DNA of 29,207 nt from a virus (lineage: Duplodnaviria > Caudoviricetes): the IMG/VR virus record IMGVR_UViG_3300033076_000615, positions 1 through 29,207 of that record. One strand, written 5' to 3'. A model generated the notes under the pieces. It searched no databases, had not been told where the DNA came from, and saw nothing but the letters and a program-made list of their open reading frames with translations. Made by a program: the position numbers and the translations under genes. The number at the start of each line of letters is the position of its first letter. Position 1 is the first letter of the stretch. This document shows, in pieces, positions 6,818-13,689 of the stretch.

Positions 6818-7260
6818 GCCGTCTAATCGAAGACGTCCGCAAGTTCATGGAGTCGGCAGATTGCACCGTTGACCGCCACAATCCGAAACAGGCCAGCCTC
6901 TACCTGGGACTCGTGGCCGAAGAGCTATCTGAGGCTATTGAGGCCATCGGAACAGCGCCCACTGCTGCTCGGATGATCAGCGCATTGGCTGATGCGCTAA
7001 AGCAGCATGACGGTTCGCAGCTTGCCGATATGACGCATGAGCAGCGCACGGGCTTGTTTGACGCTGCGCTTGACATTGCATGGGTTGCTATCGGCCTTGC
7101 TTACAGCATCGGCGCTGATCCGGAATGCGGCGCAATTGAGGTGGCGCGCAGCAACCTGAGCAAGATCGGCGCTAGCGGCAAGATGGAGCGCGATGGCAAC
7201 GGCAAGGTCATCAAGGGCAGGAACTACAGCCCGCCGAACTTGGCCCCGCTGGTCAGCTAA
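6814..7260 (+). CDS. MazG-like / PRA-PH family NTP pyrophosphohydrolase
   Basis: EELSE, DAALDIAWV, EVARSNLSK, RDGNGKVIKGRNYSPPNL motifs. Confidence 0.88.
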   Translation: MSRLIEDVRKFMESADCTVDRHNPKQASLYLGLVAEELSEAIEAIGTAPTAARMISALADALKQHDGSQLADMTHEQRTGLFDAALDIAWVAIGLAYSIGADPECGAIEVARSNLSKIGASGKMERDGNGKVIKGRNYSPPNLAPLVS

Positions 7261-7265
7261 GAATC

Positions 7266-7313
7266 ACCGCGCCACGTTGCGCAATTCATCGGGGCGCGGT
7301 ATATTTTGCGCAG
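7266..7313 (+). promoter_or_regulatory. putative promoter for the IbrAB-like cassette, overlapping an inverted repeat
   Basis: TTGCGC(7277)-17 nt-TATATT(7300); accgcgcc 7266-7273 pairs with ggcgcggt 7293-7300. Confidence 0.6.
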
Positions 7314-7342
7314 GTTCACACATAACAAAGGAGCAGCACAGG

Positions 7343-8641
7343 ATGCGCAAATATCATCCAACGCGTAATGTTTACGAAGCCTCAATTGAGCGGCTTGACT
7401 TTGTCTTTGCCAATTTTGACCGCATCTATCTGTCTTTCAGCGGCGGCAAGGACTCCGGCGTGATGTTGAATCTCACGCTTGATTACATGCGTAAGCGCGG
7501 CATCACAAGGAGGATTGGCGTTCAGATTTTGGACAACGAGGCAAACTATGACCTCTCGCTAGAGTTTATGCACAGCATTCTTGAGAAGAACTTGGACTTG
7601 CTTGACGTTTACTGGTGCTGCCTCCCGATCACGTTGCCATGCACTGTCAGTGCATACGCGATTGAGTGGCAATGCTGGGGCAATCGGGACAAAGAGCGGT
7701 GGATCCGGCCTATGGATAGGCGTCCATACATCGTCAACTTTGAAAATCATCCGTTCCCATTCTTTGAAGAAGACATGAGCTATGACCATTTTTGGGATGG
7801 CTTTGCGGAGTGGTATAGCCAGGGCAAGCCGTGCGCTAACTTGATCGGCATTCGCACGGCAGAAAGCCTCAACCGCTTCCGCGCCATCATGAATGAGCAG
7901 AAGGAGACGATGGGCGGCATGATGTGGACTAAGAAGAACACAGCGCATACCTACAATGTCTATCCGATTTACGACTGGCGCACGGAGGACATTTGGACTG
8001 CTAACGCCAAGTTTGAATGGGAATACAACAAGCTGTATGACATTTTTTACAAAGCTGGCGTGCCCGTTCACAAGATGCGTGTTGCCTCTCCTTTCATGAG
8101 CGAATCTAAGTCAAGCCTCAATTTGTATCGTGTCATTGACGGTCACACCTGGGCAAAGCTGTGTGCGCGTGTGCAAGGGGCAAACTTCATTGCTCACTAC
8201 GGTAAGCAGCTTGGCTACAAGAGCCTGAAATTGCCTCCGAATCACACTTGGAAGTCTTTTACCAAGTTTCTTTTAGCGACTCTGCCAAAAGAGGTGTCGG
8301 ACAATTTTAAGATGCGCTTCATCCAATCATTCCGCTATTGGGGGCGGGTGGGGCGCGGACTCCCCGAAGAGATTATCCAGGAGATGCGCAACTCTGGCGT
8401 GAGGTTCAAGGAGAACGGCAAGACCGCGCACGGCGGGCAGACTCTGACCCGCGTGCGTATGCAGCATTTCCCGGATCATGTTGACTTTCTTTCGTGCCAC
8501 AACAGTATGGTTGCTAGCTGGAAACGTTTTGCCATTACCATTTTGAAGAACGATCACACTTGTAAATATATGGGCCTTGCGCCCACAAAAGAGCAGGCGC
8601 AGCGGCAACGCGCCATCATGGAAAAATACAAAAAACTGTAA
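7343..8641 (+). CDS. ibrA: PAPS-reductase-like PP-loop protein with DUF3440 (IbrA/YbdN-like)
   Basis: LSFSGGKDSG PP-loop, IGIRTAESLNR, YPIYDWRTEDIW, MRVASPF, ARVQGANF, ILKND motifs; AAGGAG RBS before ATG 7343. Confidence 0.9.
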   Translation: MRKYHPTRNVYEASIERLDFVFANFDRIYLSFSGGKDSGVMLNLTLDYMRKRGITRRIGVQILDNEANYDLSLEFMHSILEKNLDLLDVYWCCLPITLPCTVSAYAIEWQCWGNRDKERWIRPMDRRPYIVNFENHPFPFFEEDMSYDHFWDGFAEWYSQGKPCANLIGIRTAESLNRFRAIMNEQKETMGGMMWTKKNTAHTYNVYPIYDWRTEDIWTANAKFEWEYNKLYDIFYKAGVPVHKMRVASPFMSESKSSLNLYRVIDGHTWAKLCARVQGANFIAHYGKQLGYKSLKLPPNHTWKSFTKFLLATLPKEVSDNFKMRFIQSFRYWGRVGRGLPEEIIQEMRNSGVRFKENGKTAHGGQTLTRVRMQHFPDHVDFLSCHNSMVASWKRFAITILKNDHTCKYMGLAPTKEQAQRQRAIMEKYKKL

Positions 8642-8651
8642 GGAGCTTACG

Positions 8652-9578
8652 ATGAAGATTGTAAAAATCAGCGACATTAAAGGCACAGAGCGCGAAGTGC
8701 ATTGCCCGAAAGGCGGTTTTGTATCTAACCGCATTTTGCTTGAGCAGGATGGCATGGGCTACGGAATGACCAAAACGGTCATTCCGCCGAATGGGCCGCA
8801 GCATTGGCACTACAAAAATCATTTGGAATCGTGCTACTGCGTAAGTGGTCGCGGCATTTTGACCAATCTCGCCACTGGCGAGAAACATAACATTGAGCCT
8901 GACACGACTTATGTGCTGGACAAACACGATGACCATACGTTTGAGGCGCTGGAAACCGTCACGCTAATCTGCGCCTTTAACCCGCCGCTTACTGGGCGCG
9001 AAGTGCATCAGGCGGATGGCAGCTATGCCGTCAAGGATTCCGGATTTAAGTCCCCGGTTTACAACGTCAAGCGCGTGCCTATCGGCAAGGTGAAGGCCAA
9101 CGACTACAACCCCAACAGTGTTGCGCCGCCTGAAATGGCGCTTTTGGAAACGTCAATTTGGGAGGACGGCTACACACAGCCAATCGTGACCTTCTACGAC
9201 GGCGCTAACGACACTTACATTGTGGTTGACGGCTTTCACCGCTACAGCACGATCCTAAACAGCGCCAGGATTCGAGAGCGTGAGCAGGGTCACTTGCCGA
9301 TTGTCGTCATTGACAAAGAGATTGGCGACCGCATGGCTTCAACCATTCGCCATAACCGTGCGCGCGGCTCTCACAATATTGAATTGATGAGCAACATCGT
9401 TGCCGAGCTTGTTGAAATGGGCAAGGGCGACCGCTGGATTTGCGAACACATTGGCATGAGCGCCGATGAGCTTTTGCGGCTAAAGCAGATTACCGGCGTC
9501 GCCGCTCTGTTTGCGAATCGTGATTTTTCCAAAAGCTGGGATGCCGAAGCCGGATGGGATGAGCGCGACGATGAATAG
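8652..9578 (+). CDS. fusion of an ectoine synthase (EctC)-like cupin and a ParB/Srx-like IbrB/YbdM domain
   Basis: First ~125 aa: SNRILLEQDGMG, HYKNHLESCYC.SGRG, YVLDKHDDH, FNPPLTGREVH..DGSY (EctC signatures). C-terminal part: ANDYNPNSVAPPEM, GYTQPIV, VVDGFHR, ASTIRHNRARGSH (IbrB). AAGGAG RBS. Confidence 0.9.
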   Translation: MKIVKISDIKGTEREVHCPKGGFVSNRILLEQDGMGYGMTKTVIPPNGPQHWHYKNHLESCYCVSGRGILTNLATGEKHNIEPDTTYVLDKHDDHTFEALETVTLICAFNPPLTGREVHQADGSYAVKDSGFKSPVYNVKRVPIGKVKANDYNPNSVAPPEMALLETSIWEDGYTQPIVTFYDGANDTYIVVDGFHRYSTILNSARIREREQGHLPIVVIDKEIGDRMASTIRHNRARGSHNIELMSNIVAELVEMGKGDRWICEHIGMSADELLRLKQITGVAALFANRDFSKSWDAEAGWDERDDE

Positions 9579-11028: not shown

Positions 11029-11315
11029 CCCGCACGCACGTTGCTCGCTATCGCCTATCCGGCCCAATGGCGGGCGTTGTCGTCATCCTCAAGCAGATCA
11101 TGGGCGCGCATCTCTGGCGCATCGTGTTCCACATTGACCTGACCACTGGCGAGCGGGAGACGAACACTGTCAATATTGATGCGCCGATCCCGCTGATGGC
11201 GCTGCAAGGCACCTGTGCGCGCATCATTGACGAGATGTTCAAAGGCCGGGACGTCGTGGCAACATCGGCGGGATGGGATGTTTACTTGGTTAAAACGAAA
11301 GGAGCTAAAGCATGA
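11025..11315 (+). CDS. hypothetical protein
   Basis: GTG start overlapping the upstream TGA; 96 aa. Confidence 0.65.
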   Translation: MTRTHVARYRLSGPMAGVVVILKQIMGAHLWRIVFHIDLTTGERETNTVNIDAPIPLMALQGTCARIIDEMFKGRDVVATSAGWDVYLVKTKGAKA

Positions 11316-12033: not shown

Positions 12034-12206
12034 AGCAACCACTTCGCACATGGCCCGCAGCGAAGCTCGAATCCGCCGCACAGCGGGCGGCAGATGCGCT
12101 GTCCGCTACTCCGCCAGCATCGCGGCGCAGTGCGGCGCTCAAGGGCTGGATTACGCGGTATAGCTCGCAACGGTTTAGGGTTGCTCAGAGGGGGTTGGAG
12201 ATATGA
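12030..12206 (+). CDS. hypothetical protein, 58 aa
   Basis: Not in the ORF track; MKQPLRTWPAAK...RGLEI; ATGA overlaps at both ends. Confidence 0.6.
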   Translation: MKQPLRTWPAAKLESAAQRAADALSATPPASRRSAALKGWITRYSSQRFRVAQRGLEI

Positions 12207-12628
12207 TCCTCTGCGCGATTGACCCAGGCGTTAACACCGGCTACGCAGAGCTAGCAGTCGGCAAGCTAATCCGCGTCGAAACCATGCAGATTCACGAGGC
12301 CATTTTTCGCATCGAGGATTTGCGCAAGCAATCGCGCATCGTTGTCGTATTTGAGGACGCCCGCCAGCGTAAGTGGTTCGGCAAGGCAGGACGCGAGCAA
12401 CTGCAAGGCGCTGGCAGCATCAAGCGCGATTGCACCGTCTGGCAAGACTACCTGCAAGCCGCTGGCGTGCCATATCTCGCCGTCAAGCCGAAAGCAGGTG
12501 CTACCAAGTGGACAGTGGAATATCTTGCACAGCAGACAGGCTGGACAGCGCGCACGAGCGAACATGCCCGCGACGCTGCTGCGTTGGCATGGCTGCATCG
12601 GCACTATGCGGAGGCGCTTGCAAAGTAG
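12203..12628 (+). CDS. RuvC-like Holliday junction resolvase
   Basis: AIDPGVNTGYA, VVVFED, EHARDAAALA acidic catalytic motifs. Confidence 0.85.
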   Translation: MILCAIDPGVNTGYAELAVGKLIRVETMQIHEAIFRIEDLRKQSRIVVVFEDARQRKWFGKAGREQLQGAGSIKRDCTVWQDYLQAAGVPYLAVKPKAGATKWTVEYLAQQTGWTARTSEHARDAAALAWLHRHYAEALAK

Positions 12629-12650
12629 CGCAAGACGTTGCACTATTCAT

Positions 12651-12684
12651 CTGCCCAGTTAACGCGGGGCAGCTTTGAACTTTT
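12651..12684 (+). terminator. putative intrinsic terminator after the resolvase gene
   Basis: ctgccc/gggcag stem followed by an interrupted T-rich tract. Confidence 0.45.
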
Positions 12685-12705
12685 ACGCCCTTTGCTCGTA
12701 GTAAT
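12675..12705 (+). promoter_or_regulatory. possible promoter for the tmRNA gene
   Basis: TTGAAC then TAGTAAT at 18-19 nt spacing, immediately upstream of the acceptor piece. Confidence 0.35.
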
Positions 12706-12848
12706 CCGCCTATGCATGCAAGCGGTGATTGGAGATTGGCGAAAGCCGGGGCACCAAACACTGTGGTCGTTCGCAGTGAGCTTGTATCGCTGTATGAAGT
12801 AGAGGGGATGCATTCAAGACGCGGGTTCGACTCCCGCCAGCTCCACCA

Positions 12849-12963
12849 AAAGCAGTCTCACTCTTGTTCTCAGCAAGAGGCGGAACAACAGAAAGGAGCA
12901 TTTTGGCCTGAGAACCGAAATTTCTCCGAGTAACCCGAAAGGTGCGCAGAGACTGTTTTTGAT
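12849..12963 (+). ncRNA. structured intervening segment of the tmRNA (multi-branch, complementary loops)
   Basis: 11-bp closing helix 12849-59/12949-59; hairpin ctcttg-ttctcag-caagag; hairpin 12895-12927 with loop cctgagaa; loops complementary over 7 nt; short GAAA-capped hairpin at ~12933-43. Confidence 0.7.
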
Positions 12964-13048
12964 GGGGCTGTCATGGTTTCGATTGAATGAGCAACCGATA
13001 TGGACAGCGGGATAGGTGACGGCCCTAAGCCGCACAAACTTGACACCT

Positions 13049-13081
13049 GCCAATGACAGCGTGTTTGCGCAGGTCGCCTAA
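13049..13081 (+). other. tmRNA proteolysis-tag reading frame (A)ANDSVFAQVA
   Basis: gcc aat gac agc gtg ttt gcg cag gtc gcc taa; AND start and 10-codon length match the proteobacterial tag pattern. Confidence 0.9.
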
Positions 13082-13130
13082 AAAACGGCCCCGCTGAGGT
13101 TTGATCGCCTCATCACCGAATGATCCTTCA

Positions 13131-13153
13131 AAGGCCCCTCACGGGGCTTTTGT
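13131..13153 (+). terminator. intrinsic terminator of the tmRNA gene
   Basis: gcccc-tcac-ggggc followed by ttttgt, with an A-run upstream (possibly bidirectional). Confidence 0.8.
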
Positions 13154-13212
13154 CGTTAAGTTCCCGTCACTATCGGCGGAAACAACCGCTCAAAATCCTA
13201 CCCACTTGCACC

Positions 13213-13245
13213 AAGCTGCGTCATCGATGGCGGGGCTTTTTGTTT
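13213..13245 (+). terminator. second terminator-like hairpin
   Basis: aagc..cgtcat/atggcg..gctt imperfect stem followed by tttttgttt. Confidence 0.5.
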
Positions 13246-13350
13246 CCGATGAACGGTATTGATTGGCATAGCTCATGCGCGCATTATTGCCCGTGCTGGA
13301 TTGGAGCAACACGAGCCCTTAGAACGGTTCCGCCCCTCGCTTAGGTCGCC

Positions 13351-13375
13351 AAACCTTCGCGAGGGTTTTTTGTTT
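13351..13375. terminator. terminator-like hairpin at the end of the convergent late operon
   Basis: aaacctt-cgcg-agggttt followed by tttgttt, ~12 nt from the last late-gene stop codon. Confidence 0.65.
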
Positions 13376-13386
13376 CCGACGCCCAA

Positions 13387-13689
13387 TCAACCCCTGCGCC
13401 GCTCAACGCCCGCAAACAGCGCTTTTGGAGGCCCAAACTTCCAAGCCCTAGAGCTTGCCAGCAGCGAGCAGAACGATGCGCCCATGAAGAACGTGACCGG
13501 GCGAGTCACCTCTCCCCATCCCACAAAGGGCGAGATTGCCATTGCGATGGCCCCTGCGCCGACCATTGACCAGGCCCAGCGCACTTCCCATCTGACCAGC
13601 GATGTGGACAGGTGTATGCGGCAAAAGGCCATGTAGGCCACGCCGAGGCTGAAAGCCTCATAAATGCACAATAGAGTCAGTGCCATCAT
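13387..13689 (-). CDS. membrane protein (holin-like cluster)
   Basis: 100 aa with three hydrophobic segments; ATGA overlap, AAGGAAGGTG RBS. Confidence 0.7.
   Translation of the reverse strand: MMALTLLCIYEAFSLGVAYMAFCRIHLSTSLVRWEVRWAWSMVGAGAIAMAISPFVGWGEVTRPVTFFMGASFCSLLASSRAWKFGPPKALFAGVERRRG

Follow-up and report, generated by a model that had tools for sequence, protein, structure and literature searches.

A candidate passenger RNA with complementary hairpin loops in the spacer of a phage permuted tmRNA gene

Two-piece tmRNAs are already known from phages, e.g., Melnitz (PMC9004378). The permuted genes that encode them (RF01850 and RF04321 in Rfam, and that of Melnitz) have gene order, T-arm, CCA, G3·U pair and tag reading frame in common with the gene described here. 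Their spacer is not part of the mature RNA, as is also predicted for our gene, and has so far been regarded as discarded. A tRNA-Ala gene and a repetitive element inside such spacers have been published (PMC11915505); five phage names searched in the supplements of that paper gave no match. In the open literature, as far as its accessible text goes and including PMC3978253, we found no account of folded cargo in phage tmRNA spacers; older papers may cover spacer structure.

Other non-coding folded phage RNAs are on record. T4 RNAC and RNAD are small stable RNAs of unknown function (PMC9697503), and ROOL and GOLLD, often located near tRNA islands, form cages built through kissing loops (PMC12286853). 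The spacer is proposed here to be a folded RNA of this general kind, with no sequence or Rfam match to any of the four. Kissing loops are likewise predicted for it, but ROOL and GOLLD are far larger, and unlike all four, the spacer RNA would be cut from inside another RNA gene. The kisses of ColE1 RNAI/RNAII and TAR/TAR* are fully Watson–Crick and 6–7 bp long, the same length as the one predicted here, and kisses of this length are as stable as the matching duplexes (PMC4138328). Those kisses join two molecules, whereas our loops lie in one RNA and their pairing is predicted.

The permuted tmRNA gene and its cassette

The window, i.e., the whole stretch of 29,207 nucleotides that was analysed, is a 29-kb phage record in which the + strand carries recombination and replication genes and the − strand those for virion and lysis. 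The permuted tmRNA gene is placed between these two arms. The head protein is of the P22 coat type and its closest cultured phages are Pseudomonas phage PfAn1 and Ralstonia phages (52–57%); in the five head-protein relatives checked, the tmRNA gene was missing or the record was fragmentary. ARAGORN missed the gene. The Rfam scan returned beta_tmRNA (RF01850) at 111.5 bits over 12741–13155 and tmRNA_permuted (RF04321) at 105.7 bits, above the gathering scores of 84 and 47, respectively, which supports the original reading of the segment as the spacer of a permuted tmRNA, here of the beta type. The piece with T-arm and CCA lies upstream of the coding piece, the G3·U alanine pair is present, and the tag frame reads ANDSVFAQVA*, closed by a stop. 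A protein-coding reading of the spacer was rejected: it has no ATG, and its longest alternative-start frame has 15 codons. The elements are as follows, with the evidence in brackets.

12203–12628, + strand: Holliday junction resolvase gene, the constant neighbour on the upstream side of the cassette (PHROG 1770, E 4e-23; protein 100% identical in sibling record L218)
12680–13144, + strand: swappable non-coding cassette with the tmRNA gene (comparison with sibling L218 and run X1)
12788–12848, + strand: tmRNA acceptor piece, with T-arm, 3′ strand of the acceptor stem and an encoded CCA at 12846–12848; its 5′ end may lie further upstream than 12788 (RF04321 and RF01850 alignments)
12849–12963, + strand: intervening segment (spacer), 115 nt, non-coding, flanked by CCA and by the GGGG with which the coding piece begins
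12849–12859, + strand: 5′ arm of the closing helix, directly after CCA (folding)
12861–12879, + strand: hairpin A, 6-bp stem (12861–12866/12874–12879) and 7-nt loop (12867–12873) (folding)
12880–12894, + strand: purine-rich linker, 15 nt (sequence)
12895–12927, + strand: hairpin B, 4 + 7 bp, with an 8-nt loop (12907–12914) (folding)
12933–12943, + strand: short weak hairpin around GAAA, in two registers (folding)
12949–12959, + strand: 3′ arm of the closing helix (folding)
12960–12963, + strand: UGAU tail, RNase P leader positions −4 to −1, pairing with the ACCA end at 3 of 4 positions with a mismatch at A(−2) (folding and RNase P rules)
12964–13155, + strand: tmRNA coding piece, with the 5′ acceptor strand and G3·U, tag frame at 13049–13081 and final hairpin at 13130–13151 (Rfam alignments, acceptor pairs and frame)

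The intact permuted tmRNA sits in a swappable non-coding cassette. In sibling phage record L218, the match to the window ends at 12679 and resumes at 13145, with different non-coding DNA between. In sequencing run X1, which may be the source of the window, the window allele occurs together with a contig in which 12676 is joined to 13156. Contigs of other runs align from ~12756 at ~92% and differ further upstream, where they resemble part of the L218 cassette; in the window itself, several small hairpins lie upstream of the tmRNA (12680–12790). No sigma-70-type promoter was found in 12400–13500, so the tmRNA is probably transcribed by read-through from upstream.

In the sibling, the cassette that takes the place of the tmRNA carries an RNA-like element (L218:3573–3680) with a terminal stem, a 6-bp match between first and last loop and no Rfam match. 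The same element has a locus in phage phi644-2 (L342:497–575), and its first ~20 bases are found in 165 GenBank phage records from many hosts; it may be a widespread uncatalogued phage RNA. Directly upstream of it lies a second long helix-closed element (L218:3470–3572, −50.8 kcal/mol), also without an Rfam match. Elsewhere in the window (7193–9578), a PAPS-reductase-like gene stands beside a ParB-like gene, preceded by a nucleotide pyrophosphohydrolase gene, possibly a DNA-modification module.

Several further permuted tmRNA genes are unannotated in GenBank phage records. One belongs to Stenotrophomonas phage vB_Sm_QDWS359 (L017:1008–1302), where the tag region resembles that of the window and a hypothetical CDS annotated on the opposite strand overlaps the gene; L346, L350, L352 and L354 hold others. 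About 400 bases of structured-looking non-coding DNA, without an Rfam match, lie directly upstream of another phage tmRNA (L341:2100–2520, minus strand).

Closing helix, tail and contents of phage spacers

The consensus spacer of permuted tmRNAs in Rfam is far shorter than the 115 nt of the window spacer, which also differs from it in being closed by a helix and in having complementary loops. We compared it with a set of 142 distinct spacers of 71–134 nt from pattern scans of viral contigs; the set includes the window spacer, one GenBank phage and one genome contig. One of the viral-contig scans took in 20 of 64 parts, with ~390 matches estimated. Left out were 35 T-arm matches lacking a 5′ piece and one false gene; a few doubtful spacers remain.

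The closing helix of the window starts directly after CCA and leaves four bases between its end and the coding piece. With this register, 8 or more of the first 10 bases are paired in 129 of the 142 spacers; shifted registers gave 19, 8, 7 and 4. In the window this register yields 11 bp and the UGAU tail. Extra long spacers from GenBank phages all have the same register (5/5), and one 26-nt spacer scores 7. The closing helix had been taken as a sign of extra function; being the norm in phage permuted tmRNAs, it offers no evidence for a second RNA.

The tail reads TGAT in 103 of the spacers, TAAT in 21 and TGGT in 3, with 126 ending in AT, and it pairs with ACCA at 3 of 4 positions, with the mismatch at −2, in 105. 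RNase P of E. coli favours an A(−2)U(−1) leader, is slowed by pairing of the leader with ACCA and leaves UGGU leaders, fully paired with ACCA, mostly uncut, according to sections 8 of PMC5602109 and 6 of PMC9433436. Taken with the tail counts, these rules suggest that selection has kept the tail as a leader for RNase P, with the cut expected at 12963/12964. The frame is of interest for RNase P in itself, as the best leader dinucleotide is kept one base short of fully inhibitory pairing.

Direct maturation by RNase III, acting on the 22-bp near-continuous helix, was considered and rejected. The cuts needed are staggered by 4 nt, not by the 2 nt that RNase III leaves, so this enzyme would at most make an upstream cut. 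Long spacers of this type look mainly viral, since a pattern for 100–130-nt spacers gave only two matches in 185,579 genomes, one of them a true permuted gene with an unrelated interior.

The contents of the frame vary. The 142 interiors make up 94 families, of which 67, including that of the window, have a single member. A crude short-gene filter (ribosome-binding site plus a frame of at least 20 codons) was passed by 38 of the 142 spacers. Among 19 non-coding families with several members, compensatory changes exceed column shuffles in two (0.015 and 0.01); no significant compensatory change was seen in the remaining 17, many of which are more than 90% alike and thus too alike to tell. The view of the spacer as a slot carrying cargo is supported, the cargo being short genes, tRNA-like pieces and conserved folded RNAs. 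The contents are interchangeable, and the frame that encloses them, closing helix plus A-U tail, is conserved. The window spacer belongs to the permuted tmRNA class and to these helix-closed phage spacers.

Some non-coding interiors are common to diverged phages (L190/L283/L340, L281/L321, L001/L330, the L106/L132 group, L108/L112/L193 and L188/L217); compensatory stem changes are seen in the first two groups, and no group among those scanned has an Rfam family of its own at gathering score. Other interiors (L151, L177, L184, L161 and L180) end in a T-arm-like hairpin and by eye resemble degenerate tRNAs. One hairpin motif occurs inside the L131 and L137 spacers and also free-standing in a phage non-coding array (L251:1020–1080), hinting that cargo moves in and out of the spacer slot.

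The loop–loop match and its look-alike in phage SM1

All helices and hairpins proposed for the window spacer were located at the positions originally given. The closing helix comprises 11 bp including one G·U, with pair probabilities of 0.54–1.0 in the spacer alone and 1.0 in the precursor; stem probabilities are 0.83–0.84 for hairpin A and 0.85–1.0 for hairpin B. The proposed GAAA-capped hairpin is present but weak and ambiguous, with a pentaloop form at ~0.6 and the tetraloop form at ~0.37. Complementarity of the two loops was also confirmed, with a length of 8 bp (12866–12873 with 12908–12915) instead of the 7 bp first reported; the 8-bp match includes one closing base from each stem.

Folding does not by itself set the spacer apart. 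The segment as a whole has a z of −2.14, owing to the closing helix; with this helix fixed, 994 of 3000 shuffled interiors fold as stably as the real one, so the hairpins alone are unremarkable. The contention that the spacer holds more structure than processing needs was therefore not upheld for secondary structure. The loop–loop match is the only unusual feature of the window spacer. The complement is rare by chance: at least 8 bp were reached in 0 of 5000 controls, 2 of 3000 shuffles and 2 of 4000 random phage stretches, and at least 7 bp in 2, 14 and 13 of the same controls. A stricter loop–loop descriptor gave one match in 1.18 Mb of other phage loci on both strands. A second loop–loop match, at window position 11187, was rejected because it folds as a plain nested helix.

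It is likely, as judged from folding energies and geometry, that the two hairpin loops of the spacer pair with each other through 7–8 bp. Loop A is zipped to a triloop in the minimum-energy fold, and freeing both 7-nt loop segments costs 2.6 kcal/mol, against −7.5 kcal/mol for the 7-bp loop–loop duplex including initiation. A rival pairing of the 5′ side of hairpin A with the linker has a probability of ~0.16. When the match is forced as a nested helix, the energy is −29.5 instead of −35.2, i.e., 5.7 kcal/mol worse, so that a kiss is expected if the loop segments pair. By rule-of-thumb lengths, end-to-end stacking of stem A, kiss and stem B would give a length of ~7.6 nm, which the 15-nt linker can bridge with its reach of 9.75 nm; a kiss within one molecule would thus be possible. 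No 6-nt complement of the loop segments occurs elsewhere in 12641–13260, and no link to the tmRNA body is therefore seen.

Within the set of 142 spacers, 8 bp are reached in 2 (0.08 expected) and 6 bp in 7 (1.3 expected). When the window spacer is excluded and random phage stretches serve as reference, 6 bp are found in 5 of 141 against 1.8% and at least 7 bp in 1 of 141 against 0.33%; spacers besides that of the window are not clearly enriched for kisses. Spacers L308 and L007 have a similar two-hairpin layout with a shorter loop match (6 and 4 bp, respectively).

The other spacer with an 8-bp match is that of Pseudomonas phage SM1 (Samunavirus), which has a permuted tmRNA unannotated in GenBank and a spacer of 112 nt. 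Like that of the window, it has a closing helix and two hairpins in the same order, with a loop match of the GUUCNNAG/CUNNGAAC type. The loops share 6 of 8 letters with those of the window, the two differing pairs are both complementary, and the spacing is 44 against 42. The chance of six common letters is 0.4–0.8%, a figure computed after the motif had been noticed. Stems and linkers, on the other hand, are unalignable, loop A of SM1 has 12 nt, and models of the window spacer and of the SM1 spacer fail to detect each other's spacer. Three distinct Samunavirus alleles (98% alike) retain all 36 proposed pairs, three of which vary; none of the variation falls in the loop pairs, and the score is equalled by 334 of 500 shuffles. 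The likeness to SM1 is suggestive and does not amount to homology.

We found no homolog of the window spacer in searches of viral, metagenome, genome, GenBank phage and plasmid sequences or in eight sequencing runs. Its exact start had three matches in viral contigs, all unrelated DNA, the tag-region pattern had a single unrelated match, and the one metagenome scan gave one match, in coding DNA. BLAST of the spacer against GenBank phages returned two chance matches, BLAST of the gene against plasmids recovered the T-arm region only, among the 12 matches listed, and nhmmer and blastn over 341 sequences gave no spacer homolog. Neither did the single-sequence models R1 (45 sources and 93 distinct records) and R2 (49 sources); such models are weak, and their blanks are soft. 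Among the eight runs, only X1 covers the spacer interior, and missing cover elsewhere proves nothing. GTTC...GAAC after the tmRNA end occurs at 30 loci, with the fully complementary GTTCNNAG/CTNNGAAC motif in SM1 only. A 16/17 copy of hairpin A upstream of the L137 tmRNA was rejected, having no partner loop nearby and being at chance level (E 0.84 and 0.19).

Possible fates of the spacer RNA

Our preferred reading, to which we assign a probability of roughly 0.45, is that the interior is a passenger RNA carried in an exchangeable slot and made compact by a kiss that does form, and that this RNA is released on tmRNA maturation and persists. One transcript would fold acceptor stem, ACCA/UGAU pairs and closing helix into one long helix. 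Following RNase P rules, the host enzyme would cut at 12963/12964 and a second cut would free the CCA end at 12848/12849, so that host enzymes would excise the spacer and leave a working two-piece tmRNA. The released 115-nt RNA is predicted to kiss within the molecule through 7–8 bp and to have its ends paired apart from a 4-nt 3′ tail, and these features together would make it resist exonucleases. It might then act in trans, our best guess being that a host nuclease or RNA-binding protein is its target, with the RNA as a stable decoy or ligand; this role is modelled on proposals for small stable phage RNAs.

A tangible, if lesser, possibility is that this is an ordinary spacer: tmRNA maturation would account for selection on closing helix and tail, the interior would be filler that has decayed or is not under selection, and the complementarity of the loops would be accidental. 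The generic closing helix (129/142), an interior energy at shuffle level and an interior that is a singleton, as in 67 of 94 families, all fit this explanation. A 7-bp match is found in 0.3–0.5% of controls, the finding was picked from many windows, and with several hundred phage spacers in the pool (~390 estimated), one chance 8-bp match is not negligible. It accounts less well for an 8-bp match placed exactly in two loops, seen in ~1 in 1500–2000 controls, and for a second spacer with the same motif and spacing where 0.08 would be expected among 142. The kiss could also be real and serve the precursor only, preventing mispairing with the tmRNA pieces or pacing the cut by RNase P, after which the spacer would be degraded. 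RNase P is slowed when the leader pairs with ACCA (PMC5602109 section 8 and PMC9433436 section 6); here 3 of 4 leader–ACCA pairs are backed by 11 further base pairs, so that the shape of the precursor matters, and two alternative folds are within reach. We nevertheless consider this precursor role unlikely, as most spacers are presumably processed without a kiss (2/142 reach 7 bp) and the loops have no 6-nt complement elsewhere in 12641–13260.

Complementary loops are able to pair in trans as well, and the released RNA might form dimers or rings like phi29 pRNA, or cages like those that phage RNAs near tRNA islands build via kissing loops (PMC12286853). Against such oligomers, which we regard as highly improbable, stand a linker long enough for pairing within one molecule, the lack of any Rfam match to the pRNA, ROOL and GOLLD families and a size much below that of cage RNAs. 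More improbable still is a self-cleaving ribozyme or ligand-sensing aptamer controlling tmRNA maturation: a multi-way junction with a loop–loop contact is common to both classes, but normal tRNA-type processing accounts for both ends, the core motifs of hammerhead and purine aptamer are absent and the spacer has no Rfam family match of its own up to E 10.

The originally suggested likeness to purine riboswitches, the VS ribozyme and pRNA found no support beyond the bare presence of a kiss. A purine riboswitch has conserved junction and loop motifs and is placed in the leader of an mRNA, before the expression platform; the spacer lies inside a tmRNA gene, and those motifs and any Rfam match up to E 10 are missing. 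The hammerhead core is CUGANGA, with GAAA after stem II, and CUGANGA occurs on neither strand, with no Rfam match either. The gene of phi29 pRNA belongs to phi29-type phage; the present head protein is of P22 coat type, and pRNA gave no Rfam match. An Rfam match to SNORD53 (E 2.3) is noise. The kiss of the VS ribozyme consists of three Watson–Crick pairs between U-turn loops I and V (PMC4138328), not of 7–8 bp as in the window, and this ribozyme had no Rfam match.

Returning to the passenger RNA, a broader and rather doubtful extension would make phage two-piece tmRNA genes two-RNA genes, the helix-closed spacer acting as a launch cassette for a second stable RNA, set free by host processing. 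The window and SM1 spacers might then be the first two members of an undescribed kissing-loop RNA class of ~110 nt with a common GUUCNNAG/CUNNGAAC contact. Since the look-alike spacer is present in cultured Samunavirus phages, the question is directly testable. If the spacer releases a folded RNA, one phage gene would yield two functional RNAs, and phage spacers would become a clearly bounded inventory of small RNAs with ends known beforehand.
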